Assembly: GCA_965116635.1 (NCBI GenBank)
Contig: OZ220710.1
Span: forward strand, 2,010,549-2,074,548
From: Thermodesulfobacteriota bacterium
GTDB taxonomy: Bacteria; Desulfobacterota; Binatia; UBA9968; JAJDTQ01
Length of the DNA: 64,000 nt
Reading direction: 5' to 3'
Position numbers and translations under genes: made by a program. This document shows, piece after piece, positions 3,832 to 48,377 of this stretch. The first letter of the stretch is position 1. Each line of letters begins with the position of its first letter. The notes under the pieces are model-generated. The model was not told where the DNA came from and searched no databases. It was given only the letters and a program-made list of their open reading frames with translations.

Positions 3832-4295
3832 CGGCCCGGGACTCTTTTCAGGGTGGTCTCGACGAAGTCCCCCGCATCCGGATTCCAGGCATAGACCGCG
3901 ACCCGGCCGACGCTGCCGCCCATCACCGAAACCACGACTTGGGCCGTGTCCGGATAGGTGGGCTCGCCGAAAGGCGTGGCGCAGGCCTTGTCCTCGTCGG
4001 AAAAATAGGCGTCGTGGTCCGGGTGGGAGTGATAAAGTGCCTTGAAGGCGACGCCCCGGCGCTCCGCCTGTTTCAGAATGGCGTCAAGCTCCTTGGGGTC
4101 CAGGTTGTAGGCGGTCCGGGCGTCCCTGGGGAAGGTTTCGGGGTCGGTGGCGTGAAGGGTGTTCTGGATATTGACGAGCCGATGGACCTCGTCGCCGCCG
4201 TCACCGCCGAGAATGACCCCGCAGCACTCCTCCGGGTACGTCTCCCTTGCGTGTTCCGCGATGATTCCGAAGACGGTTTCGCTCAGCGCAAACAC
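3828..4295 (-). CDS. JAB/MPN (Mov34, JAMM) domain metalloprotease-like protein
   Basis: JAMM motif E...HSHPDHDAYFSDED (HxHx7Sx2D) plus upstream ECCGVILG. The ORF-track ORF extends to 4553, but a GTG at 4295-4293 preceded by GGGAGGAG gives a typical ~156 aa MPN protein. Confidence 0.6.
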   Translation of the reverse strand: MFALSETVFGIIAEHARETYPEECCGVILGGDGGDEVHRLVNIQNTLHATDPETFPRDARTAYNLDPKELDAILKQAERRGVAFKALYHSHPDHDAYFSDEDKACATPFGEPTYPDTAQVVVSVMGGSVGRVAVYAWNPDAGDFVETTLKRVPGR

Positions 4296-4320
4296 CAGAC
4301 TCCTCCCCGCCCCTCCTCTG

Positions 4321-5535
4321 CTAGTCGATGACTCCCTCCCGCGTGAGCGTCTCGAACTCCTCGTCCCCAAGGCCCAGCAAGTCGCGGTAGAAGTACTCGT
4401 TGTGTTCGCCCAGCAGCGGGTCCCTGCGGTCCGGGCCGCCGTCGCTTTCGGACAGGGTGTAGGGCGCGCGCTGGTACGACATGGTGCCGATCTCCGGATG
4501 GTCCATGCGGTTCCACTGGTCCCGGTGCACGAGCTGCGGGTCGTCGTAGACATGCTCCATGCCGTTGACCACGCCCGCCGGCACGCCCGCGGCCTGGAGC
4601 TTCTCCACCAGCGCGCGGGCCTCGAACTGACGGGTCCACTCGCCGATGCGCGCTTCCAGCTCGTCGGCGCGGCTCCGCCGCCGCTCGGCGGTGGCGTACT
4701 CGTCCCGGCCGCCCCACTCGGGCCGGTCCATGGCCTGGCAGAGCGCCCGCCACTGCTCGTCCGACGCCACGCTGAGGGCGCACCAGTTGTCGTCTCCGGC
4801 GCAGGGAAACGCGCCGTGGGGCGACGCCTCCGGATGCCGGTTGCCGTCGCGCATGGCGACGTTGCCGTTGACCGTGTAGTCTAGCAGCAGCGGCCCGAGG
4901 TACTGAAGCCCGGTCTCGTACTGGGCCAGGTCGATGTGCTGCCCCCGGCCGGTGGCATCCCGGTACTCCAGCGCCGCCAGCACCGCCACCACGCCGTAGC
5001 CGACGGCGATGTAGTCGATGTATGGGCCGTAAAGGATCTGGGGCGACCCGTCCCGGTATCCGGTGAGATTGGTGAAGCCCGCCAGGGACGAAAGCTGGGA
5101 GCCGAAGCCGGGATGGTGCGCGTGGGGGCCGGTCTGTCCGAGGTTCGAACTGCTCAACATGATCAGCCGCGGGTTGACCTCCTTCAACGCCTCGTATCCC
5201 AAACCCAGCCGGCCGATGGTGCCGGGGCTGAAATTTTCCACCAGAACATCCGCCCAACTCACGATGCGCCTGGCCAGTGCGAGGGCCTCCGGCCCCTTCT
5301 TCAGGTTCAGGGTGATGCCCAGCTTCTCGCTGTTGCAGAGTGCGAACAGACCCGACCGGTTGAGCCCGTGGATGTTGTCCTTGTACGGCGGATAGTGGGT
5401 GCGGAAGCCGTCGGGACGCGTCCGTGACTCCACGTGCACCACCGTGGCTCCCTGATCCACCAGATGCTTGCCCACCACCGGCCCGGCCGCGTACGCGGCG
5501 GCCTCCACGACCTTGAGACCTTCCAGTGCCTTCAT
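4321..5535 (-). CDS. CoA transferase, family III (CaiB/BaiF-like)
   Basis: 404 aa with an N-terminal pattern typical of family III CoA-transferases (LEGLKVVE..AGP..G..L.DQGA.V..VE). Confidence 0.8.
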   Translation of the reverse strand: MKALEGLKVVEAAAYAAGPVVGKHLVDQGATVVHVESRTRPDGFRTHYPPYKDNIHGLNRSGLFALCNSEKLGITLNLKKGPEALALARRIVSWADVLVENFSPGTIGRLGLGYEALKEVNPRLIMLSSSNLGQTGPHAHHPGFGSQLSSLAGFTNLTGYRDGSPQILYGPYIDYIAVGYGVVAVLAALEYRDATGRGQHIDLAQYETGLQYLGPLLLDYTVNGNVAMRDGNRHPEASPHGAFPCAGDDNWCALSVASDEQWRALCQAMDRPEWGGRDEYATAERRRSRADELEARIGEWTRQFEARALVEKLQAAGVPAGVVNGMEHVYDDPQLVHRDQWNRMDHPEIGTMSYQRAPYTLSESDGGPDRRDPLLGEHNEYFYRDLLGLGDEEFETLTREGVID

Positions 5536-5567
5536 GACCCTTCCATTTCCATGTACCCGTTGTTGCC

Positions 5568-5661
5568 GCCCTTCGACTCCGTTTCGCTACGCTCAGGGCA
5601 AACGCCTCGAATTCCAAAAAACCGTTCGTCCTGAGCGTAGCGAAGCGAAGTCGAAGGACGC
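5568..5661. repeat. palindromic intergenic repeat, copy A (MITE/REP-like, TIR-only form)
   Basis: Arms cccttcgactccgtttcgctacgctcagggcaaacg / ccgttcgtcctgagcgtagcgaagcgaagtcgaaggacgc are near-perfect reverse complements around a 14-nt loop. The right arm is identical to the right ends of copies at 34.3, 44.3 and 47.3 kb. Confidence 0.8.
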
Positions 5662-5664
5662 TAC

Positions 5665-6921
5665 CTAGATCACGCCCTCATTCTCCAGACGAACCAACTC
5701 CCCCGCCTCCAGGCCCAGCTCCGTATAGACCTCCCGGTTGTGTTCGCCGATGAGCGGCGCACGGCGGTAGATCCGGCAGGGGAAGTCCGAGAAGCGGGCG
5801 AACCCCCCGGGGTAGGTGATGGTGCGGTTGAGCTCGGGATGCTCCACCTCCTGCCAGAAGTCCCGCGCCTTGAGCTGCGGATCGGCGAGGAGCTCCTGGG
5901 CGGTGGAAACGGGATAACCGAGCATGCCGCGCCCGGTCACCGCCTTGAAGAACTCGGCCTTGGTGACGCCGGTAAAGAACTCGGCGATGGGCTCCTCCAT
6001 GACGTCGAGCTCGTCCTGGGTCACCTGCTCGATGTTGAACGTGCGCCAGTCCTTCTCCAGCAGGAACGCCGGCGCCGCCCCCTTCTCGGCCATCCACTCC
6101 ACCAGCGCCTGGTTGGTCTTGCGGCCGGCCTCGCCGCCGTAGATGATGAAGTTCAGGTAGCCGTCCTTGCAGGGCCAGAACACCCGCATCTTGGCGCCGG
6201 TGATGGTGCGGCCGGTCATGAAGGAGCCCGCCCGCTTCTCCACGGAGCGGTTGAGGTCCCAGAACGTGTGGGCGTGGGAGAAACCCCAGAGCATGCACGC
6301 CTGGGCCGACACGTCCACGTGCTCGCCCCGGCCGTTACGCCGGCGCTGCGTGTGAGCCACCAGCGCCGCCATGGCGGCATAGGAACCGGTCCACTGATAG
6401 GACTGGGGGAAGGTCACGCGAAGCGGGGGCTTGTCCGGGTCGCCGGTGAGCGACATGCAGCCGCTCATGGCCATGATCTCGATGTCGGTGGCCCGGTAGC
6501 GGCTGTAGGGGCCGGTGAGGCCGAAGGGCGTGATGGACACCAGCACCGTGTGGGGATTGGCGGCCCGGATGACGTCGTGGCCGAGGCCGATCCCTTCCAG
6601 GTAACCCGGCCTGAACGTCTCCAGCACGAAGTCCGCCTTGGCCGCCAGGCGCTTGAACAGCACCTGTCCCTCGGGCGCCTCGAGGTCCAGCGTGATCCCG
6701 CGCTTGTTGTTGTTGAAGGCGAACCAGTAGAGGCTCTTCTCGGGATCGCGCTCGCCGTCGAGATAGGGCCCGATGCACCGGGCGGCGTCCCCGCCCGGAC
6801 GCTCCACCTTGATCACGTCCGCGCCCAGATCGCCCAGCGTCTTGCCGCAGAGAAAGCCCAGTTCGTCGGTCAGGTCCAGAATACGGTAGGGGGCCAAAGG
6901 CCCCTTTTCACTCAAACTCAT
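5665..6921 (-). CDS. CoA transferase, family III (CaiB/BaiF-like), second paralogue
   Basis: 418 aa with the same family-III N-terminal signature (ILDLTDELGFLCGKTLGDLGADVIKVERP). Confidence 0.8.
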   Translation of the reverse strand: MSLSEKGPLAPYRILDLTDELGFLCGKTLGDLGADVIKVERPGGDAARCIGPYLDGERDPEKSLYWFAFNNNKRGITLDLEAPEGQVLFKRLAAKADFVLETFRPGYLEGIGLGHDVIRAANPHTVLVSITPFGLTGPYSRYRATDIEIMAMSGCMSLTGDPDKPPLRVTFPQSYQWTGSYAAMAALVAHTQRRRNGRGEHVDVSAQACMLWGFSHAHTFWDLNRSVEKRAGSFMTGRTITGAKMRVFWPCKDGYLNFIIYGGEAGRKTNQALVEWMAEKGAAPAFLLEKDWRTFNIEQVTQDELDVMEEPIAEFFTGVTKAEFFKAVTGRGMLGYPVSTAQELLADPQLKARDFWQEVEHPELNRTITYPGGFARFSDFPCRIYRRAPLIGEHNREVYTELGLEAGELVRLENEGVI

Positions 6922-32650: not shown

Positions 32651-34246
32651 CTAGGGTCCATGGTGGGTGGCCAGGGGGCTCGTGTCGGTGAGGGCCATCA
32701 TCCTGCGGGCCAGGGCCTCGGTGAGGTCGCCACGCTGGGAGCCCGGCTCGTCCCACAGGTTGCGCATCTCGTCCGGGTCGTTGTCGAGGTCGTAGATCTC
32801 GCCCCAGCCGGCGCCCTCGTAGAGGGTCAGGCGCCGGTCCGGCGTGATCAGGGTGCGGGCGCGGAAGTTGTTGTCGAAGCCCATGTAGCCGCGGCGCTGA
32901 TGCTCCTCGATGAGCAGCGACTCGTACCCCGTGTCGCCACCGCCCATGGCCGGCAGGAGACTCACCCCCTGCATGCCGTTGTGCCCGTCGAGGCCGGCCC
33001 GGTGCAGGATGGTGCTGGGCAGATCCAGGGTGCCGCACAGCCCGGGGTTGACCACGCCTTTGGCCGCGGCCGACGGGTCGGCCCATATGAACGGCACCCG
33101 CACCAGCCCGCGATAGTGCAGCGCCCCCTTGAGCAGGAGCTGGTGGTCGCCCATGAAATCCCCGTGATCGCTGGTGAAAACGATGACCGTGTCATCCGCC
33201 AGCCCCAGGGCCTCAAGCCGTGCCCGGATACGGCCGATGGCGTCGTCGATCATGGTGATCATGCCGTAGGTCAGGGCGATGGCTTCGCGCGTTTCGCGCC
33301 CGGTGATGGCGAAGCCCCGCTGGCCGTCACGGTTGGCCTCGCCCCGGTCCCGCTCCTCGTAGAGCGCCGCCAGATGCGGCAGCACCGGATGCTCGCCGCG
33401 ATGGAACGAGGCGGGCAGCGCGATCTGCTCCGGATCGTACAGGTCCCAGTACCGGCCCGGCGGCGTGAACGCGTGATGCGGATCGGGAAACGAGCATTGG
33501 ATGAAGAACGGCCGCTCCCTGCCGGAACGGGCGTGTTCCTCCAGGAACGCCATGGTGCGCTCGGCCACGTAGCTGGTGGGGTAGAGTTCCTCGGGCACGC
33601 GCGTGCGCCACGCCTGGGGGGCCTGGTAGTCATTGCCCGGAAGCTGGTTCGCCGCCCCGCGCAGGGAGTCGGGGTCCGCATGGCGCGCCCGGAGCCATCG
33701 CTCGTAGTGCCCCACCACCTGATCCGCGTGCTTGATGCACAGCTCCACGTGCTGGAATCCGTAGTAGGGAAAAACCGGCTCGAACTCCGGGTCCCGCGCC
33801 CAGGTGGACGGCAACTCCTGGTCGTAACGCCCGCCGGAATTCTTCCACGCCTCCCGGAGCAGTGACGGCGGCCGGACGCGCTGCGGATCCGGCTGTGGCA
33901 TGCCGATCACCGGCAGATCGTCCTTGATGCTCTGGAGGTGGCACTTGCCGATGAGCGCCGTGTGGTACCCGGCCGCGGCCATGACGTCGGTGAACGTCGT
34001 CGCCTCGAGGGAGAGCGGGATGCCGTTGTGCCGGACGCCGTGGAGCGACGGCATCCGGCCGGTCATCAGCGTCGCCCGGTTGGGCATGCAGATGGGCGTG
34101 GCCGTGTAGAACCGCTCGAACCGCGTGCCCGACGACGCCAGCCCGTCGATGTGCGGCGTCCGCACCACCGGATTGCCGTAGCAACCCAGATGGTCCGCCC
34201 GGTGCTGGTCGGTGATGATGAAGAGAAAATTGGGTCGATCGCTCAT
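32651..34246 (-). CDS. sulfatase (arylsulfatase family, Cys-type)
   Basis: 531 aa with the C-x-P-x-R FGly site (CMPNRATLMTGR) and N-terminal FIITDQHRAD metal-binding motif. Confidence 0.85.
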   Translation of the reverse strand: MSDRPNFLFIITDQHRADHLGCYGNPVVRTPHIDGLASSGTRFERFYTATPICMPNRATLMTGRMPSLHGVRHNGIPLSLEATTFTDVMAAAGYHTALIGKCHLQSIKDDLPVIGMPQPDPQRVRPPSLLREAWKNSGGRYDQELPSTWARDPEFEPVFPYYGFQHVELCIKHADQVVGHYERWLRARHADPDSLRGAANQLPGNDYQAPQAWRTRVPEELYPTSYVAERTMAFLEEHARSGRERPFFIQCSFPDPHHAFTPPGRYWDLYDPEQIALPASFHRGEHPVLPHLAALYEERDRGEANRDGQRGFAITGRETREAIALTYGMITMIDDAIGRIRARLEALGLADDTVIVFTSDHGDFMGDHQLLLKGALHYRGLVRVPFIWADPSAAAKGVVNPGLCGTLDLPSTILHRAGLDGHNGMQGVSLLPAMGGGDTGYESLLIEEHQRRGYMGFDNNFRARTLITPDRRLTLYEGAGWGEIYDLDNDPDEMRNLWDEPGSQRGDLTEALARRMMALTDTSPLATHHGP

Positions 34247-34260
34247 TTCGTTCGGTCTCC

Positions 34261-34352
34261 CTGTCCCGAGCTTGTCGAAGGGCTCAGGACGAACGGCTCG
34301 ATTTCCCCAGGACCGTTCGTCCTGAGCGTAGCGAGGCGAAGTCGAAGGACGC
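34261..34352. repeat. palindromic intergenic repeat, copy B (internal hairpin + right terminus)
   Basis: gtcccgagcttgtcgaagggctcaggacgaacgg ... ccgttcgtcctgagcgtagcgaggcgaagtcgaaggacgc shares the internal hairpin and right end with copies C and D. Confidence 0.8.
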
Positions 34353-34379
34353 CAAATCCGACAGGCTCCCAGGACATCA

Positions 34380-34928
34380 CTACGGATCCAGCGGCTTCTC
34401 GCCCTCCTTCGGCTCCACCTCCATGGAGTTCAGGACGCAGGCAAGCAGCACATAGTATCCGATGAAGGCCGAAAGCTCCACGCACGCCGTGGCCCCCAGG
34501 GCCTTCTCCACGGCGGCGAAGGTCGGCTCGCTCACGCGATGGGAGCGCAGCAGTTCTTGCGTGAAACGGCGGAGGTCCGCCTCCTCCGGCGTGAGCCCCG
34601 GCGGCTCCCGGCGCTCCCGCACCGCCTCGATGCATTCGTCCGAGATACCCGCCGCCCTGGCGTGTCCGGCGTGCACCGACCACTCGAATAGGCAATCGAC
34701 CTCCCGCGCCACGGTGAGGATCACCAGCTCCTTCAGCTTCTGGGGAAGCTCCATCTCGAAACGGACGAGGCTGCCGAGGTGGGCCACGCGAGCGGCCAAC
34801 TCCGGACTGTGCAGCAGCATGGTAAACGGCCCCTGCACCGCGCCCCGGCTCTGCGCGATGGCATCGAACACCGCATGGTGCTCCGGGCTCAGGTCTTCTT
34901 TCCCCTTGATACTCGCGATACGCGCCAT
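34380..34928 (-). CDS. carboxymuconolactone decarboxylase (AhpD-like) family protein
   Basis: About 182 aa CMD-domain protein (LVILTVAREVDCLFEWSVHAGHARAAG). ATG at 34928. Confidence 0.7.
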   Translation of the reverse strand: MARIASIKGKEDLSPEHHAVFDAIAQSRGAVQGPFTMLLHSPELAARVAHLGSLVRFEMELPQKLKELVILTVAREVDCLFEWSVHAGHARAAGISDECIEAVRERREPPGLTPEEADLRRFTQELLRSHRVSEPTFAAVEKALGATACVELSAFIGYYVLLACVLNSMEVEPKEGEKPLDP

Positions 34929-34997
34929 GTGAACTTCCTCCTCTTGTTGTGTTGTTCCCGCGGTGTCGTGCAACCGCCGGCGGGGTTGGAACCCGCC

Positions 34998-35756
34998 CTA
35001 CATCAGCCCTTCGGCCGGGTAGTCCCAGCACTCGAGATACCAACCCTCCCCTTCCACCGCCAGCGCCGCCTTGTAGCCCTCACCCGCGTCCAGCGCGCGC
35101 ATGGACCACCGCGACACCTCCGCCGGGTCGCCCTCGAACCGCAGCAACGCCGCGGGCTCGCCCGGCCGCAAGGTCACGTCGAACCGGCTCAACCCCAGCG
35201 CGATCCCCTCGCCGTGGGCCTTGATGAACGCTTCCTTCCGTGTCCAGCAGTTGAAGAATGCCTCCCGCCGTTGTCCGGGGGGGAGGCTCGTCAAGGCTTC
35301 CACCTCCGCCGGCGAGAAGGAGTGCCGGGCGACCCCCATGATGTCGGTGTCCGGACGCACGCACTCGACGTCGACGCCGACCTCGCGGCCGACGGCGAAG
35401 GCATGCAGCGCCCACCCGTAGGAATGGGACAGGTTGAAACGCACGTCGCGGCCGCCGTTGGTTTCCGCGAGCGACGGCTTGCCATGGGCGCCGTAGCGGA
35501 GCTCGACCGCGGCAGGCTCCGCGTCGAGGTAGCGCGCCAGGAGGCTTCGCAACACCCCCCGGGCTACCGTGTACCGCCGCCGGTCCTCTTCGTAGAGGAA
35601 CCGAGCCGCCCGAGCGCGTTCGTCGGGCGCCAGCAGCCCGTACAAGGGCGCCACGCGGGCAGGAGGCACCTCGGTGGCCGTACGCCAGACGTGGACCGTA
35701 TCGGGCGCCAGCGCCAGGTTCACCGCCGGAGACGACCAGTGAACCGTGGGCCTCAC
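34998..35756 (-). CDS. Sfp-type 4'-phosphopantetheinyl transferase
   Basis: 252 aa with FNLSHS, GVDVE and WTRKEAFIKA motifs. Its GTG start overlaps the MFS stop (GTGA). The ORF-track 658 aa ORF is this gene plus an out-of-frame read-through of the MFS gene. Confidence 0.75.
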   Translation of the reverse strand: MRPTVHWSSPAVNLALAPDTVHVWRTATEVPPARVAPLYGLLAPDERARAARFLYEEDRRRYTVARGVLRSLLARYLDAEPAAVELRYGAHGKPSLAETNGGRDVRFNLSHSYGWALHAFAVGREVGVDVECVRPDTDIMGVARHSFSPAEVEALTSLPPGQRREAFFNCWTRKEAFIKAHGEGIALGLSRFDVTLRPGEPAALLRFEGDPAEVSRWSMRALDAGEGYKAALAVEGEGWYLECWDYPAEGLM

Positions 35757-43177: not shown

Positions 43178-44101
43178 ATGACGACACACGTATTTTCCGG
43201 CAACCCGCTGGACCGGGGCGACGTGCAGCGCCGGGATGAAGGTTGGCTCCGGCAGACGGCCCAGGATCCCCGTTCCCGCTTCCTGCCGCTGTGGCAACTC
43301 GACATCCTGTTGCGGAACGGCTCCCGTACCGAGCTCGGATGGGTCAGGCCCGGGGACATCGAGGGGCTCGGCCTCGACGGCCCGCCGGTCTTTCTCGGGC
43401 TCATGGACGGCGCTGCCCACTTCGCGGTGGACGTCTCCGCCGTGTCCGAGCCGCTTCAGGCGCTGAACCTGGAAGACCCCTGGAGCTTCGTCGAAGCCCG
43501 GACCGCGGCCGCGCAGTTGCAGCCCCAGGAGGTGGGCATCCTGGCCCAGAGCAAGGCCCAGGTGGACTGGCACCGCCGCCACCGTTTCTGCGGCCTGTGC
43601 GGCGGTCCCACGGAACAGGGGCGCGGCGGCCAAGTGCGCAAGTGCGCGGCTTGCAACACCGAACACTTCCCCCGCACCGACCCGGTGGCCATCATGGTCA
43701 TTACCGACGGCGAGCGCGCCTTGCTGGGCCAGTCCCGCGGACGCCTCGCCCGCTCCGGACGCTACTCCGCTCTCGCGGGCTTCATCGACCAGGCCGAGTG
43801 CATCGAGGAAGCCGTGCGGCGGGAGATCAAGGAGGAGGCCGGCATCCGGGTCGGCGAAGTCCGCTATCACTCATCCCAGCCCTGGCCCTTCCCTTCCTCC
43901 CTCATGATCGGCTGCCACGGCAAGGCCTTGTCCACCGACATTGCCAAGGACGACGAGGAGATGACCGACGTGCAGTGGTTCGGACGGGACGAAGTGCTTT
44001 CCTCCCTGGCCGGCGAGAACCCGAACCTGCGTCTGCCCGACCCGGTGGCCATCGCCCACCATCTGATCCGGGCGTGGGCCGAGGGACGGGTGGTGTTTTA
44101 G
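43178..44101 (+). CDS. nudC: NAD+ diphosphatase (Nudix, NudC-like)
   Basis: Zinc ribbon CGLCGG...CAACN and Nudix box GFIDQAECIEEAVRREIKEEAGI. Confidence 0.85.
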   Translation: MTTHVFSGNPLDRGDVQRRDEGWLRQTAQDPRSRFLPLWQLDILLRNGSRTELGWVRPGDIEGLGLDGPPVFLGLMDGAAHFAVDVSAVSEPLQALNLEDPWSFVEARTAAAQLQPQEVGILAQSKAQVDWHRRHRFCGLCGGPTEQGRGGQVRKCAACNTEHFPRTDPVAIMVITDGERALLGQSRGRLARSGRYSALAGFIDQAECIEEAVRREIKEEAGIRVGEVRYHSSQPWPFPSSLMIGCHGKALSTDIAKDDEEMTDVQWFGRDEVLSSLAGENPNLRLPDPVAIAHHLIRAWAEGRVVF

Positions 44102-44252
44102 TGTCGCGTCTCGCAACGCTAGTGTGGTGTCTGGTTAATTCGCGTCATAAGATGCGGAGGATTTTTTGTCGTCGGCAAGGCGCGATGACTTGTAGGGGCG
44201 ACCTGCGGTCGCCCTTCAGTGGCGGGCACCACGCGAGGAAGAGCAACGCAGC

Positions 44253-44368
44253 CGCCCTTCGACTTCGCTTCGCGAAGCCTGTCCTGAGCCTTGTCGAAGG
44301 GCTCAGGACGAACGTTTAAGTCAGATTCCGTTCGCCCTGAGCGTAGCGAAGCGAAGTCGAAGGGCGCC
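44253..44368. repeat. palindromic intergenic repeat, copy C (full form: left TIR, internal hairpin, right TIR)
   Basis: cccttcgacttcgcttcgcgaagcctgtcctgagccttgtcgaagggctcaggacgaac ... ccgttcgccctgagcgtagcgaagcgaagtcgaagggcgcc. The termini are mutual reverse complements. Confidence 0.85.
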
Positions 44369-44412
44369 GACCCATGTAGACGGGACGGCCAACGCCGTAG
44401 GGGAATCATTCA

Positions 44413-46005
44413 ATGTCCAAGCCACGCATAGCGGTGTTCTCGGGCCCGCGCGCCACCATTGCCAATACGCCGGCGCTGGTGACCAGCAACAAGGGCCGGG
44501 CGGCGGGCGAAGCGCAACTGGAAGGACGGTTCGACCACCTGGTTCCGCAGCGCCTGCACGAGCCCGTGCGCGTACGGATCGAGAAGTTCAGCGCACACCC
44601 GTTGGAATCCGACGCCGCCGAGGTCTACCACGACGACGGCAAGTCCTACTACGAAGTGGAGTTGCGCCCGGAGGACGGCGCCTATCTGCTGCCCTACATG
44701 GCGCGCCGCGACGACGGCTCCGAGGACGGCACGCCCTTCGAGGCCGCCGACCTGCGCGACCCGGACCTCGGCTACGGCGGGAGACAGTCGTTCCTCCCCG
44801 ATGCATCCCGGCTGTTCGAGGACATCGACCGGGGTTTGGGCGGACGCGGCCACGACGGTGCGGCCAGCGAGCTGGACCGGCTCGCGGAGTTCGACTTCGT
44901 GCGCGTGCTGCCGCCGTCGGGCCACCTGAAACAGGGTGAAGTGGCCGGGCGCGATTTCTTTCCGTACAGCCCCCGGCCCCTCGGCAAGTTCCCGCCCAAC
45001 AGCGCCATGGCCCGCGCCGTCAACATCGTCCAGCGAACCATCGACTCGGGGCGCTATGACGGCTTCATCTGGCTGGAAGGCAGCCCGCACGTGGAAGAGA
45101 CGCTCTACTGGCTGAGCCTGGTCCTGGATACCGCCCTGCCCTTCGTGGGCATCTCGTCGCAACGCCCGCACGGGGCCCTCGCCAACGACGGGGACCGCAA
45201 CATCGTCGACGCGGCGCGCTATATCGCGTCGGGACTTGGCACGGGGCTGGGCGCGGTGGGCATCGTCGACGAGCAGATCTTCGCGGCGCGCACGTTCAAG
45301 AAAGGCGACGCGCGCCCGGGCGGCTACCGGGCCACCGGCGGCCACGGCGGCGTCCTCGGCAGCGCCTGCGAAGAGGTGCGCGTGTGGTTCCGTCCCGCCT
45401 ACCGGACCACCGGCGCCTCCGCGCTCGCGGTGGCAAACCTGCCCTCCGAGGTCACCTTTCAGGAGTACGGCGACAGCCCCGGGACGGCGAGCATCCGCAT
45501 CAAGGATGACGGCGGCTCACTCCGCGGCGACGTGATCGCGCCGGTGCACGTCGTGAAGTACGGCCATTACATGGCCGAGGAAGACACGGCGGACCCGGAG
45601 GTGGAAGTGGACATCATGGCGCGCATCGAACGCGGGCTGGCACAGCAAGCGTCGGCGGAGCCCGACGCGCCCCGGTTTCACGGCTTCGTGCTGGAGGGCG
45701 CAGCGGGCACCGGCTCGGCGCTCCACAGCCAGATGGCCGCCCTCGCCATCGCCGCCTGCAACGGCATGCCCGTGGTACGGGTGAGCCGCGGCGATCCGGA
45801 GGGCGCCTTGCCCTCCAATCCCAACGATCTGACCATCGAAGGCACCAACCTGGACGCCACCAAGGCGCGCGTGCTGCTGCGCGCGGCGATGCTGCGCCTG
45901 GGACGCTTGCCCAAGGCGCGCGACCCCCGCAACCCGACAGCGCAGGAGCGTGAGGCGTCGCTGGCGGCGATTGCGCGGTACCAGGAAATATTCGAGACGC
46001 ACTAG
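44413..46005 (+). CDS. asparaginase/glutaminase-family domain protein (long form)
   Basis: 530 aa with N-terminal RIAVFSGPRATIANT and later GFVLEGAAGTGS (asparaginase-type threonine/GxG regions). Extended relative to classic type I/II enzymes. Confidence 0.6.
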   Translation: MSKPRIAVFSGPRATIANTPALVTSNKGRAAGEAQLEGRFDHLVPQRLHEPVRVRIEKFSAHPLESDAAEVYHDDGKSYYEVELRPEDGAYLLPYMARRDDGSEDGTPFEAADLRDPDLGYGGRQSFLPDASRLFEDIDRGLGGRGHDGAASELDRLAEFDFVRVLPPSGHLKQGEVAGRDFFPYSPRPLGKFPPNSAMARAVNIVQRTIDSGRYDGFIWLEGSPHVEETLYWLSLVLDTALPFVGISSQRPHGALANDGDRNIVDAARYIASGLGTGLGAVGIVDEQIFAARTFKKGDARPGGYRATGGHGGVLGSACEEVRVWFRPAYRTTGASALAVANLPSEVTFQEYGDSPGTASIRIKDDGGSLRGDVIAPVHVVKYGHYMAEEDTADPEVEVDIMARIERGLAQQASAEPDAPRFHGFVLEGAAGTGSALHSQMAALAIAACNGMPVVRVSRGDPEGALPSNPNDLTIEGTNLDATKARVLLRAAMLRLGRLPKARDPRNPTAQEREASLAAIARYQEIFETH

Positions 46006-46030
46006 TGTGGTGTCCGCCCAGCCTACGGAT

Positions 46031-46726
46031 TTACAAGCGCCGCCAGTTCTCTTCGCCATACACGAGCCAGGCATCTACTCTCTCCCCGTCCCAACGATAA
46101 GACAGAAGACGGCTCTGAACCGGGATCCCGACTACATCCGGCCAGAATGCGGCCACGGCTTGGCCGCGGGACCAGCGAACGCTCGGATAGACGATGCCGT
46201 TGCTGGTGTGTCTTTCGCGCAGGTCCGCGGCCAACGCCTGTCCGGCGGTGTAGTCGTCGGAATTCAGCGCGGGGCGGAATTCGTCCGCACCGCGCAGGTC
46301 GTGCAGCTCCGCGTCGATGCCGCCGACGAGTTCCCGGTAGTCCGCGGTGGCCGGCTCTTCCTCCGTCGCCGCCATGAAACGCTCAAGGTGGGACACCGTC
46401 TCCGCCAGAGCCACCTCAAAGCGGTTGCCCGCGTAGTAGACACCGTAGCTGCCGTCGCCGAACCGGGTCGGACGGTCGTGCGAGGCGTGGCAGAACGGCG
46501 CCATCACACAATTGGCGCCGGGACCCGAAACCCGACGCGCTGGCGGCACCAGATGGATGGCGCCGATGTCGTCTCTGATCCTTGGATTGGTCTTGGTTTC
46601 CGCTTCCGCCAACAATTCCCAGTCCGCCGGATCAGCGATGTCGTCGAACAGGTTCACCGGGGGATAGACCGTCCGGATCAGACGGTACGCCCGCCGCCAC
46701 CGGACCCGGCTCACGGGCGAGATCAC
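46031..46726 (-). CDS. RES-domain toxin (NAD+-targeting RES family)
   Basis: 231 aa with conserved R...E...S positions (SYGVYYAGNRFEVALAETVSH ... YPSVRWSRG). Its start overlaps the upstream antitoxin stop (ATGA). Confidence 0.8.
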   Translation of the reverse strand: MISPVSRVRWRRAYRLIRTVYPPVNLFDDIADPADWELLAEAETKTNPRIRDDIGAIHLVPPARRVSGPGANCVMAPFCHASHDRPTRFGDGSYGVYYAGNRFEVALAETVSHLERFMAATEEEPATADYRELVGGIDAELHDLRGADEFRPALNSDDYTAGQALAADLRERHTSNGIVYPSVRWSRGQAVAAFWPDVVGIPVQSRLLSYRWDGERVDAWLVYGEENWRRL

Positions 46727-47142
46727 CAGCCGCCGCGCTCCGCGTCGAGATAGGCGCGCACGGCTACGAGATCGGGGATAGAGCCGGCCAGCAGCCGGTC
46801 CAGCGCCGATGCGCCGCCGAACACCTGGTTCGGCTTACGCAGCCATTCGTAGCCCCGCGACGGTTCGCGGAACAGTTGGCGCAGGTTCTTGTGAATGCCC
46901 ATCAGCATGGACAAGCGCTCGCGGGTGTCTCGGGAGATACGCGAAGGTTCCACCTGCCCGGTTTTCCAGCGCGCGTAGGTCCGGGCCGCGGGATCTCCCA
47001 CCAGAATCCGGCCTTGGCGATCGTTGAGCCGCCAGTGCTCCGCCAGATTGAAGAAGGCTCGGAGCATGGCCGTGGTCTCCGCGTCGGTTATTTCCGGCCC
47101 GACCGCCAGCACGCTGCCCGGGAAAGGAATGACGTTTGCCAT
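46723..47142 (-). CDS. Xre-like/DUF2384 antitoxin of RES-Xre pair
   Basis: 139 aa. ATG at 47142 (MANVIPFPGS...). The longer ORF-track reading (to 47331) runs into the MITE copy and is rejected. Confidence 0.7.
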   Translation of the reverse strand: MANVIPFPGSVLAVGPEITDAETTAMLRAFFNLAEHWRLNDRQGRILVGDPAARTYARWKTGQVEPSRISRDTRERLSMLMGIHKNLRQLFREPSRGYEWLRKPNQVFGGASALDRLLAGSIPDLVAVRAYLDAERGGW

Positions 47143-47233
47143 ATGGCAGTTCTTAGTTAACAGGTTGCCTTGCGTCAAAATTTGGTTCTGGCTCCGGCAC
47201 GGTCCGTTTTTCCCTGGGAACCTGTCGGATTCG

Positions 47234-47371
47234 CGCGTCCTTCGACTTCGCTTCGCGAAGCCTGTCCTGGGCCTTGTCGAAGGGCTCAGGACGAAGGTGG
47301 GTGCGAGTGTTGCGCGACATGAACTCCACAACCGTTCGTCCTGAGCGTAGCGAAGCGAAGTCGAAGGACGC
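47234..47371. repeat. palindromic intergenic repeat, copy D (full form)
   Basis: gcgtccttcgacttcgcttcgcgaagcctgtcctgggccttgtcgaagggctcaggacgaag ... ccgttcgtcctgagcgtagcgaagcgaagtcgaaggacgc. Its termini are about 95 % identical to copy C. Confidence 0.85.
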
Positions 47372-47444
47372 TATCCAGGCGGCCCACATCTATCCTTGTC
47401 GGCAAAGGCCTCGCAAACTATAGTTACGGCGTAGGAGGTGAACC

Positions 47445-48377
47445 ATGACCAGCACTCTCCGCTTTAGCGGCGCCATCCCGGCGAATCTGCTGCCCTTCAA
47501 CGAGGATCTCTCCTTTGACGAGGTCAACTACCGGAGGCACCTGTCCTGGCTGGCCGCGGTGGACGGCGTCAGCGCCATCGTGTGCAACGGCCATGCCGGC
47601 GAGGTGTCGTCGCTGGATCGGGAGGAACGGCGCCGGGCACTGGCCATCGCCGCGGACCAGGTGGGCGACCGGGTCGAGCTCATCGCCGGCATCTACACCG
47701 ACAACACCCTGGAAGCTGCCGAACTGGCCAAGGAGGCCAAGACCGAAGGCGCGACCGGGCTGCTGATCTTTCCGCCGACACTCTTCATGTGGGGCGCCCG
47801 GCTCCGGCCGGAGATGGCCATCGTCCACTTCGAAACCATTGCCGAGGCCACCGACCTGCCGATCATCGTCTTCGAGTATCCGCCGGCCAGCGGTATCGGC
47901 TACGCCCCCGAAACCCTGGCGCGGCTGGCGGAGATCGAGCACGTGGTGGGAGTCAAGGATTGGAGCAACGACATGGCGGCCCTGGAGGCCAACCTTCGGG
48001 CGTTGCGCGGCACCGGCCGGCCCGTGGCCATGCTGAGCAGCTACACCATGTCCATGTTCGCGAGCTACGTCCTGGGGGCGGACGGCTCCATTTCAGGTAT
48101 GGGAAGCGTCACCGCGGACCTTCACGCCGACCTCTTCCGGGCGGTTCAGGCCGGGGACCTGGAAGCCGGCCGTGCGCTCAACGACCGCCTGGCCCCGCTG
48201 GTGGAGGTGTTCTACGCCCCGCCCTTCGTGGACATGCACAACCGCATGAAGGAAGCGTTGGTGCTCCTGGGACGCATCGACAAGGCCGTGGTGCGGCCGC
48301 CCCTCCAGCGCATCAGCGACGCCGAGCGCGAACGCATCCGGCTGGCGCTGCTGCGGTCCGGGTTGCTACTACCGTAA
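47445..48377 (+). CDS. dihydrodipicolinate synthase/N-acetylneuraminate lyase family (class I aldolase)
   Basis: 310 aa DapA-like (AIVCNGHAGEVSSLDREER, GVKDWSND with Schiff-base Lys context). Confidence 0.8.
   Translation: MTSTLRFSGAIPANLLPFNEDLSFDEVNYRRHLSWLAAVDGVSAIVCNGHAGEVSSLDREERRRALAIAADQVGDRVELIAGIYTDNTLEAAELAKEAKTEGATGLLIFPPTLFMWGARLRPEMAIVHFETIAEATDLPIIVFEYPPASGIGYAPETLARLAEIEHVVGVKDWSNDMAALEANLRALRGTGRPVAMLSSYTMSMFASYVLGADGSISGMGSVTADLHADLFRAVQAGDLEAGRALNDRLAPLVEVFYAPPFVDMHNRMKEALVLLGRIDKAVVRPPLQRISDAERERIRLALLRSGLLLP

Follow-up and report, generated by a model that had tools for sequence, protein, structure and literature searches.

A REP/REPIN-like family of intergenic repeats built from a unit of about 40 nucleotides in Candidatus Binatia and other bacterial lineages

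Four palindromic elements of similar sequence lie between genes within a 64,000-nt stretch of DNA from a Thermodesulfobacteriota bacterium (GTDB lineage Binatia; assembly GCA_965116635.1, contig OZ220710.1, positions 2,010,549 to 2,074,548), hereafter the window. The question raised by this locus is what kind of repeat these elements represent. An earlier note on the window described them as nested palindromes resembling miniature inverted-repeat transposable elements (MITEs) or repetitive extragenic palindromic (REP) sequences. The repeat is a real, undescribed family of an ordinary bacterial kind, similar to REP sequences and to REPINs (REP doublets forming hairpins). The REP-like character and the wider family suggested earlier are borne out; the strict MITE alternative is not, since the elements have no target-site duplication, no matching insertion sequence (IS) at the sampled loci and arms that fold on themselves. 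Loci from other genomes are designated below by L-numbers, and the window by W.

The window holds exactly four elements, at approximately 5561-5666 (copy A), 34251-34357 (copy B), 44247-44372 (copy C) and 47230-47376 (copy D, the site first reported), all of them intergenic and far above chance expectation. Direct reading confirmed the four positions given earlier, with true limits a few bases wider, and all four copies are flanked by open reading frames (ORFs) with Pfam-supported products, in agreement with their description as strictly intergenic. The 13-mer GCGAAGTCGAAGG has seven exact occurrences in the window; with up to two mismatches it has 18 matches against 2.7 expected, a number reached by none of 100 shuffled sequences. 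A repeat search recovered a 71-nt right part in the four copies (D1), a 63-nt left part common to copies C and D at 95% identity (D5), and the inverted arms within the copies (I3, I14 and I16). A covariance model of non-redundant units, run over the window with filters off, detects plus-strand units of about 69 bits (E ~1e-17) at 5621-5666, 34312-34357, 44327-44372 and 47331-47376. Their minus-strand partners lie at 5561-5606 (54.5 bits), at 44247-44316 and 47230-47299 (both at 27.7 bits, their centres interrupted by a 37-nt insertion) and, in degenerate form, at 34251-34297 (about 15 bits); the model finds no further convincing unit elsewhere in the 64 kb.

The building block of the elements is a unit of about 40 nt, CCGTTCG-TCC-TGAGC-GTA-GCGAAGC-GAA-GTCGA-AGG-ACG. 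Copy A consists of a minus-strand unit, a 14-nt spacer and a plus-strand unit. Copies C and D follow the same plan, with a 37-nt insertion in the minus-strand unit placed exactly between GAGC and the GTCGAAGG half. The inserted sequence is an abbreviated, inverted form of the unit (CCTTCGAC-AAG-GCTCAGG), and this inverted short unit accounts for the internal hairpin noted previously in these two copies. That hairpin, described as perfect, is so in copy C (44281-44309) but has one mismatch in each of copies D and B. In copy B the inner hairpin and the right unit are retained and the left terminus is lost. As every window copy resolves into a minus-strand unit followed by a plus-strand unit, all four are head-to-head inverted doublets, and the supposed truncated copies are better read, on the anatomy given by the covariance model, as structural variants of a single doublet plan. 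What had been called terminal inverted repeats (TIRs) are the outer halves of the two inverted units: inverted arms of 26-43 nt with 87-93% complementarity are present, but each arm is an inverted copy of a self-folding unit. The near-identity claimed for the elements holds for the arms and not for the spacers, which are unrelated and measure 14, 18, 18 and 35 nt by pattern delimitation. In the lineage of the window the CCGTTCG ends of the two units face a spacer of 13-35 nt, for a total element length of 95-145 bp; doublet spacers in the family are mostly 16-19 or 28-30 nt long. Among aligned units the tetranucleotide GTAG is more than 90% conserved and is internal, at the base of the inner variable hairpin on its 5' side; GTAG-tagged REPs likewise have the motif at the foot of their hairpin.

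The unit extends well beyond the window, which argues against the possibility, considered earlier, that the window copies are all there is of the family. An exact match to a 28-mer of the unit is present in at least 112 blocks of a genome collection scanned with one genome per species. Most of the listed blocks belong to Candidatus Binatia metagenome-assembled genomes (MAGs), complete chromosomes included, and the unit-bearing sponge MAGs labelled 'Deltaproteobacteria' and 'Thermodesulfobacteriota' are 91-94% identical to Binatia loci. Other carriers among the listed matches are Rhodanobacter (including isolate C06), Dyella, Thermomonas, Alphaproteobacteria, Nitrospirales and Anaeromyxobacteraceae. 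A core of 28-38 nt is identical between Binatia, Xanthomonadales, Nitrospirales, Alphaproteobacteria and Anaeromyxobacteraceae, so that it spans five or more groups of phylum level. Binatia MAG OZ241976, the closest sequence among the matches listed, is syntenic with the window at 83-88% identity over 9 kb.

A profile search of 0.93 Mb of unit-bearing DNA (113 sequences) yielded 312 units in 201 clusters, comprising 127 singletons, 44 doublets in the minus-plus arrangement against 4 in the plus-minus arrangement, and several tandem arrays. The recurring composite is thus the one that defines REPINs, two inverted units with a short spacer that can form a hairpin. Chromosome OZ251459 carries at least 101 units, and OZ241979 carries 64 or more. 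The architecture is lineage-specific: relatives of the window have mainly doublets, and most units in these two chromosomes stand singly within other composite repeats. L077 (2568-2761 and 4827-5058) and L087 (5971-6191) contain perfect tandem arrays of unit-containing repeats, with periods of 65 nt (3.0 and 3.6 copies, 99-100% identity) and 33 nt (6.7 copies). Because the 65-nt or 33-nt periods are identical and enclose no unique spacers, a CRISPR-like nature of these arrays was rejected. No match to the unit was found in 2.9 million viral contigs or in 72,556 plasmids. Rfam 15 gave no match in the window at the gathering score, and only chance-level matches (e.g. ceN80, mir-2766) around copy C at E values up to 10. 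Searched by sequence, the published literature contained no match to the unit other than the Cycas Bpu consensus discussed below, and the text and supplements of a REP survey (PMC3733652) held no matching sequence.

The sequence variation among units points to a conserved fold. From 109 non-identical units a diverse subset of 48 distinct sequences was aligned and a hairpin was derived by eye; its positions pair in 93% of cells, and compensatory double changes occur at 9 of the 16 pairs. The observed covariation was reached in none of 500 column shuffles, and the signal was lost when the partner was slid by 1-3 columns. The outer stem occurs as CGTCC/GGACG, CGCCC/GGGCG, CATCC/GGATG, CGTGC/GCACG, CAGCC/GGCTG and CGCTC/GAGTG. 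The central GC-GAA-GC mini-hairpin is swapped for GGCGC-GAA-GCGCC, GCGCCGC-GCCA-GCGGCGC, GGCC-CCAG-GGCC and others, the replacement hairpins of other lineages being longer and GC-rich with GNA or GNNA loops. Invariant positions are TGAGC, GTA, GAA and GTCGAA, and TGAGCGTA and GAAGTCGAA are unchanged. The unit is thus a short imperfect palindrome capable of forming a stem-loop, within the 20-40 nt range of REP sequences. It can be modelled as an irregular one-strand hairpin with an outer stem of 5-6 bp, two G-C pairs with a bulged T, and a terminal mini-hairpin of variable length. In this model 5'-TGAG/3'-AAGC likely offers tandem G.A pairs, and GTA/GAA would form a purine-rich internal loop. 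As DNA, the oligonucleotide d(GCGAAGC) forms a mini-hairpin of unusual stability. A single unit earns no credit in nearest-neighbour folding (z about 0). The doublets, in keeping with the long stem-loops predicted earlier, fold at -47 to -85 kcal/mol, the z-score being -3.1 in the degenerate copy B and between -7.6 and -10.3 in copies A, C and D. Two other readings of the unit were rejected: a hammerhead, whose core (CUGANGA...GAAA) is absent on inspection by eye, and an integron attC site, for which RYYYAAC...GTTRRRY boxes are wanting. The ends are GCGTCCTTCGAC...GTCGAAGGACGC, the surrounding genes are metabolic and lie on both strands, and no integrase is present. K-turn and sarcin-ricin readings, weighed by eye, were set aside as well.

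None of the 201 clusters lies inside a called gene. The family is both extragenic and of high copy number, as REP sequences are. Gene calls in this comparison relied on GC content at third codon positions (GC3) and are crude, and the comparison of positions is accordingly approximate. Where flanking genes lie within 250 nt (n = 95), 54 are tandem, 21 convergent and 20 divergent, which matches the shares of intergenic length (p = 0.37); the divergent share in particular (20/95, ~21%) equals that of intergenic length. Singletons are on the same strand as the flanking genes in 35 cases and on the opposite strand in 23 (p = 0.15). A T-run follows 27 of 397 element ends in the wider sample (6.8%). 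A terminator-like T tail is absent after copies C and D (43900-47700 scanned), and no T-run follows copies A and B as read. The design of an intrinsic terminator, a GC-rich hairpin with an immediate T/U run at the 3' end of a transcription unit, is therefore lacking. The terminator role proposed earlier is not supported, given the missing T-tracts at the window copies, the place of copy D in a divergent promoter region, the ~21% divergent placement in the family and the lack of strand bias; together, position, orientation and T-run data argue against terminators and against an orientation-dependent RNA role.

How the copies begin and end, and how they change between genomes, bears on their mode of spread. 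None of 39 doublets is flanked by a target-site duplication. Outside the arms, the bases are complementary rather than directly repeated (ATGGCG...CGCCAT, GAGCCCGCG...CGCGGGCTC) and represent an extension of the palindrome. Occupancy differs at several intergenic sites between L031 and L095, which are about 91% identical. Orthologous doublets are retained in the pairs W/L008, L009/L055, L016/L059 and L032/L042; at these sites the units are intact, and the intergenic DNA around them can no longer be aligned. Paralogues have near-identical arms and unrelated spacers. The composite left arm of copies C and D, a derived form, is found again at L016, L019, L021, L034, L052, L057, L073 and L085, and its presence at unrelated loci and in different genomes indicates that whole doublets multiply as such. 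One unit arm more has been gained in L059, and a 5-nt slippage deletion is present in L008.

Rearrangement within doublets was observed in two further cases. The spacer is exactly inverted between the orthologous doublets L016 7323-7434 and L059 2905-3064 (GGAAAGGCATCCATAAA versus TTTATGGATGCCTTTCC), and in two Rhodanobacter species (L032 1018-1114, L042 5109-5208) the long-loop and short-loop arms have changed sides. Spacer inversion and arm swapping are direct evidence of recombination between inverted arms. Together with the fusion of one copy to another element and the presence differences at ~91% identity, they substantiate the idea, voiced earlier, that the elements are recombination hot spots.

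The architecture of the elements, their restriction to intergenic DNA, the missing target-site duplications and the differences in presence and absence between genomes point to a repeat of the REP/REPIN/BIME type (BIME, bacterial interspersed mosaic element) and not to a classical MITE, and the four sites are probably copies of such a repeat. The element is best understood as non-coding and non-autonomous, its doublets being able to form very stable long hairpins or cruciforms. It would be moved in trans by an enzyme that probably recognises the folded unit rather than a duplex terminal repeat, and that might be a single-strand-specific transposase like those of the HUH/RAYT type (RAYT, REP-associated tyrosine transposase) or of another kind. 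Copies would be added rarely and then inherited vertically. Later they could be reshaped in several ways: recombination between the inverted arms would invert loops or swap arms, templates could switch or units nest, the three CGAAG repeats could slip, and tandem duplication could occur. Effects on the host, such as hairpins in operon transcripts and spurious ORFs, would be by-products.

Several observations weigh against a REP/REPIN/BIME assignment. A tblastn search with E. coli RayT as a query, which is narrow, revealed no RAYT/Y1 transposase beside the units in 0.97 Mb of unit-bearing DNA, and a hidden Markov model of 120 enterobacterial RAYTs, likewise a narrow profile, found none among the six-frame ORFs of at least 60 aa in the same DNA. 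The protein search behind this profile yielded enterobacterial RAYTs only, so the profile gained little reach. REPIN-RAYT systems are described as lineage-specific and vertically inherited (PMC3116915, PMC3337134), with which a cross-phylum identity of 28-38 nt is at odds. GTAG is internal in the unit and is neither terminal nor unpaired. Described REPs favour unidirectional and convergent intergenic regions (PMC3733652), a preference that this family does not show on the crude gene calls used. No replication-strand bias was detected as an association with local GC skew, the skew over 8 kb being noisy. Wobble asymmetry gives a contradictory answer as to the folding strand, with T.G in 20 cases and C.A in none at one pair and A.C in 22 and G.T in 6 at the next. 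Finally, the conservation of the arms far above that of spacers and flanks could also reflect a host function or gene conversion.

Other proteins and elements near the units did not supply a candidate enzyme. All-against-all clustering of locus ORFs revealed no transposase-like family among recurrent neighbours, and Pfam searches of flanking genes in the window and in other phyla returned ordinary genes and one IS110 transposase. A weak RAYT match in L049 proved to be a membrane protein ORF, and inverted composite copies 2 kb apart in L003, considered as the bounds of an IS, enclose the TRAP transporter genes dctQM and no transposase. A cognate IS with matching TIRs, which the earlier note proposed to look for, was found at none of the sampled loci. 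In L022 an IS110-family transposase gene (DEDD_Tnp_IS110 and Transposase_20; 4077..5117, minus strand) directly adjoins a unit (5304-5341). The IS110 element (4024-5288) has the ends CTTGGCCGCATTGTA.../...TACAATGCGGCCAAGG, and a degenerate doublet terminus, ATGGCGCTTCTTCG, is found on its other side. By analogy, this element may have inserted into a doublet; some IS110-family elements, for example ISPpu9, insert into REPs (PMC8450116).

The same evidence can be read in other ways. The unit could be a cis-acting RNA element of mRNAs selected by the host as a protector of 3' ends, an mRNA stabiliser, a processing or protein-binding site, or a terminator, roles that have been proposed for the REPs of E. 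coli; such selection would explain its conservation. Covarying stems beside purine-rich 'unpaired' positions that do not vary are the mark of a functional fold, stem pair 3 shows T.G but never C.A, T-A changes to T-G in the GTA/GAA loop, units are kept at orthologous sites where flanks are not, the doublets are extremely stable, and copies A, B and C, with co-directional genes on either side, would be transcribed. An RNA element is nevertheless unlikely. The strand bias of singletons (35/23) is not significant, the placement between divergent genes is what intergenic length alone predicts, T-runs follow few ends and no window copy, occupancy differs between genomes 91% identical, Rfam holds no match, and the A.C mismatches at stem pair 4 favour the opposite strand. 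The lack of transcription-strand bias would better suit a site acting at the DNA level, kept by the host or by concerted evolution as a binding or structural site (for a nucleoid factor, gyrase or a factor like integration host factor (IHF), as in BIMEs, as a cruciform, or through gene conversion between copies that would hold the arms identical as the loops drift). Near-identical arms with unrelated spacers across paralogues, loop inversion and arm swapping as signs that arms recombine, and tandem AGCGA/CGAAG pentamers that could form a protein-binding array also fit such a site. Gene conversion, though, cannot account for a unit that is identical across phyla, the rapid gain and loss seen among related genomes speaks against a locus-specific requirement, and no candidate protein is known; we regard a DNA site as improbable.

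Bacterial MITEs such as Correia/NEMIS, RUP and ERIC have TIRs and target duplications. The family resembles them in its size (95-145 bp), long inverted ends, multiple copies, intergenic position and read-through inside operons, and genuine elements with TIRs and duplications that carry the unit do exist, namely a 210-bp element in L059 and a GGAAACYCTGAACAAT-ended element in L080. A deletion derivative of an IS with a DDE transposase, moved through its TIRs, should however leave target-site duplications, and no direct repeat is present at any of the 39 doublets; a parent IS, expected to end in GCGTCCTTCGACTTCGC... with duplications, was not found at the sampled loci. The 'TIR' of the doublets is a unit that folds autonomously and also occurs singly (127 of 201 clusters) and in tandem, no recurrent transposase family adjoins the units in the sampled loci, and the plasmid and viral collections contain no matches. 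The missing duplications essentially exclude the classical MITE model, which is largely refuted and which we consider very improbable.

The four window copies differ in their surroundings. Copy A (minus-strand unit 5561-5606, spacer, plus-strand unit 5621-5666) has 38-nt arms that are 87% complementary (I3), units of 54.5 and 69.6 bits and a folding energy of -59.8 kcal/mol (z -9.8). It lies 3 nt past the stop of a CoA-transferase III gene (5665..6921, minus strand) and ~26 nt ahead of the start of a second one (4321..5535, minus strand). Copy B (plus-strand unit 34312-34357 with the degenerate left arm 34251-34297; 68.7 and 15.2 bits, fold z -3.1) keeps in this arm the short-motif hairpin GTCCCGAGC-TTGTCGAAG-GGCTCAGGAC and has lost the outer terminus; its neighbours are a sulfatase gene (32651..34246, minus strand) and a CMD-family gene (34380..34973, minus strand). 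In copy C (minus-strand unit 44247-44316 with the nested 37-nt insertion, a short spacer, plus-strand unit 44327-44372; inverted arms I16) the insertion stands in place of the central GTA mini-hairpin, and the plus-strand unit is the variant with a GCCC..GGGC stem. Its units score 27.7 and 69.5 bits and it folds at -72.8 kcal/mol (z -7.6), between a NUDIX NADH-pyrophosphatase gene (43178..44101, plus strand) and an asparaginase-like gene (44413..46005, plus strand); the orthologous site in L008 holds a simpler doublet. Copy D (minus-strand unit 47230-47299, 35-nt spacer, plus-strand unit 47331-47376; 27.7 and 69.0 bits; -85.2 kcal/mol, z -8.5; inverted arms I14) has the same nested insertion as copy C, with one G.T in the hairpin at 47264-47292. 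It lies between the divergent genes of an Xre-type antitoxin (46723..47142, minus strand) and a DHDPS-family protein (47445..48377, plus strand). A promoter-like TTGTCG-17-TATAGT stands at 47396-47424 upstream of the DHDPS-family gene, ~20 nt downstream of the end of copy D, and is conserved in the syntenic Binatia locus L008 (~1100-1135), from which copy D and the toxin-antitoxin pair are missing.

Other repeats adjoin these copies. The left half of a second element, MITE-B, occupies 44120..44250 on the plus strand, with the terminus TAGTGTGGTGTC and a GTAG-tagged hairpin, GTAGGGGCGACCTGCGGTCGCCC, and matches L059, L082, L065, L085, L096 and L110. MITE-B is an element of ~210 bp with the TIRs GTGTGGTGTCTCAC.../...GTGAGACACCACAC, a CTAG-like 4-bp flanking duplication and one 40-nt unit inside; its full form in L059 (1372-1580) is a clean insertion relative to L016 (~6000). 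The half present in the window has been joined to copy C by way of MITE-B's own unit, and it contains a terminator-like hairpin and T-run at 44139-44158, right after the NUDIX gene. The terminal 12-mer TAGTGTGGTGTC of MITE-B occurs a second time at 46003..46014 on the plus strand (2 matches in the window against 0.10 expected), where it overlaps the stop of the gene at 44413..46005 and marks the left edge of a segment missing from L008. Comparison of window 46003-47376 with L008 1084-1155 shows that a RES toxin gene (46031..46726, minus strand), the gene for the Xre/MbcA/ParS antitoxin (46723..47142) and copy D are all absent there. As the absent segment starts at TAGTGTGGTGTC, the toxin-antitoxin module looks like an insertion into repeat-rich intergenic DNA. 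A further composite repeat, with the ends GGAAACYCTGAACAAT.../...ATTGTTCAGAGGTTCC, encloses one or two units and has the conserved tail GCGCTTTCCCATAGGGAGAGGCGCCTCGAGCCGGAAT. Compared with L030 (5777-5781), L080 (7238-7404) carries it as an insertion, and it is the composite in which the mostly single units of OZ241979 and OZ251459 are embedded.

The repeat has practical consequences for annotation. As was claimed earlier, it generates spurious peptides: FAKPVLSLVEGLRTNV is the plus-strand translation of copy C and RPEPFDKAQDRLREAKSKD the minus-strand translation of copy D. ORFs 43243..44319 (plus strand) and 46723..47331 (minus strand) are extended by the repeat, which accounts for spurious ORFs or over-extended starts in the window at these two and at 4283..5617 and 34243..35043. 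In many loci (L009, L018, L034, L103) the palindrome of the doublet usually extends to ATGGCG.../...CGCCAT, and these extended ends offer an inward-facing ATG (reading MASFDFASLRSGRT...) that is absent from the window copies and is probably only a source of spurious ORFs. The family will mislead gene callers in Binatia and related MAGs; it can be masked cleanly with a covariance model built on the 40-nt unit. Local rearrangement and assembly ambiguity concentrate at the elements, which can also serve as lineage markers.

A literature text search with a 12-mer revealed a resemblance outside bacteria. Bpu, a 36-bp repeat of the mitochondria of Cycas (~500 copies) and Ginkgo (~100 copies), has the consensus AAGGTTATCCCTTTCCTGAGCGTAGCGAAGGGAAGG; AAGG is directly repeated at its two ends, and a CCTGAGC (Bpu10I) site lies inside (PMC8297867). 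Bpu and the bacterial unit share TCCTGAGCGTAGCGAAG (17 contiguous nt), 21 of 22 aligned positions, the CCTGAGC site and a GAAGG end, and Cycas Bpu scores 15.1 bits against the unit profile. A bacterial short variant in L003, CCTGAGCGTAGCGAAGTCGAAGG, differs from Bpu only by TC in place of G. The exact Bpu 22-mer is present on four distinct bacterial metagenome contigs (L114-L118 set, GC 42-69%); bacterial gene content was confirmed on L117, the only one of these contigs checked. On each contig the 22-mer sits in a REP-like palindrome, the ordinary unit of which takes the form stem-CC-TGAGCG(A/T)AGCGAA-GG-stem. Like the family, Bpu is short, non-coding, hairpin-capable and of high copy number. 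It differs from the unit in its 36-bp length, its directly repeated AAGG ends, the sequence of its 5' half, the lack of CGAAG repeats two and three, and its location in plant mitochondria. The Bpu papers examined, PMC8297867 among them, mention no bacterial relative.

The shared sequence suggests a superfamily CCTGAGCG(T/A)AG(CGAAG)n whose members, among them the Binatia unit and Bpu, would differ in length; that Bpu arose from bacterial REP-like repeats is an unproven lead. More tentatively, the Binatia unit might be one branch of a broad superfamily of hairpin repeats that includes Bpu, its module CC-TGAGCG(T/A)AG(CGAAG)n-GG, with predicted tandem G.A pairs and a GNA-closed mini-hairpin, being held nearly invariant in at least five phylum-level groups through a trans-acting factor. 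If the resemblance to Bpu reflects homology, it would offer the first hint of where a repeat family came from that plant mitochondrial genomics has found puzzling since 2008. Interest in the family would rise if either this relationship or a cross-phylum recognition factor were established.

Comparison with known repeat systems places the family near REP sequences without full agreement with any one class. The REP sequences of E. coli stabilise mRNA and bind IHF, gyrase or Pol I. Their sequence is unrelated to that of the unit. E. coli REP/BIME clusters (in part PMC3479197) resemble the family as mosaics of unit variants with variable linkers that are extragenic within operons and form hairpins in transcripts. 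The REPINs of Pseudomonas and Enterobacteria (PMC3116915, PMC3337134) resemble the family as well: two inverted units of ~40 nt with a short, poorly conserved spacer form elements of ~100 bp that are intergenic and multicopy, occur as singlets and doublets, persist at orthologous sites and leave no target duplication. Unlike in REPIN-RAYT systems, in which a single-copy RAYT gene is flanked by the REPs, no RAYT was found in 0.97 Mb of unit-bearing DNA, and the unit is identical across phyla, which is unusual for such systems. GTAG is internal, and the unit is an irregular hairpin with conserved loops, modelled as non-Watson-Crick, in place of a simple imperfect palindrome.

The GTAG and CGTC superfamilies of REP sequences (Di Nocera et al. 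2013, PMC3733652) share with the family the occurrence as singletons, as one predominant inverted dimer, in clusters and in tandem reiteration, as well as covarying stem residues and G.T pairs, and the loops of GTAG-3 and GTAG-14, like those of the unit, have self-complementary inner parts of variable length. The family differs from them in having no unpaired terminal tag, its CGTC lying in the paired outer stem CGTCC/GGACG; in lacking the AT-initiated stem of 8-9 bp, the loop of 4-5 nt and the CCA tail of CGTC REPs; and, on crude gene calls, in not being depleted between divergent genes (PMC3733652). It thus departs from the published REP classes on two points, the terminal unpaired GTAG/CGTC tag, which is absent, and the RAYT, which was not found in the 0.97 Mb searched. 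Classical CGTC-tagged REPs that match the form given by Di Nocera et al. are found alongside the new family in genomes of Binatia and Nitrospirales, for example CGTC-ATTCCCGC-GNAA-GCGGGAAT-CCA and CGTC-ATCCTCGA-loop-TCGAGGAT-CCAG, at L031 ~830-900, L094 ~5690 and L022 3940-3975 and 5372-5460. The family combines a REPIN-like architecture, a unit conserved base for base across phyla, conserved loops predicted to be non-canonical with covarying stems, and the lack of a cognate transposase in the 0.97 Mb searched, which is an unusual mix. Some GTAG/CGTC REP families do span distant taxa, and CGTC REPs are apparently without a dedicated transposase (PMC3733652). As no RAYT was found, the family may resemble the CGTC REPs in this respect, and a cognate factor, if found, would bear on how RAYT-less REP families of this kind arise and persist.

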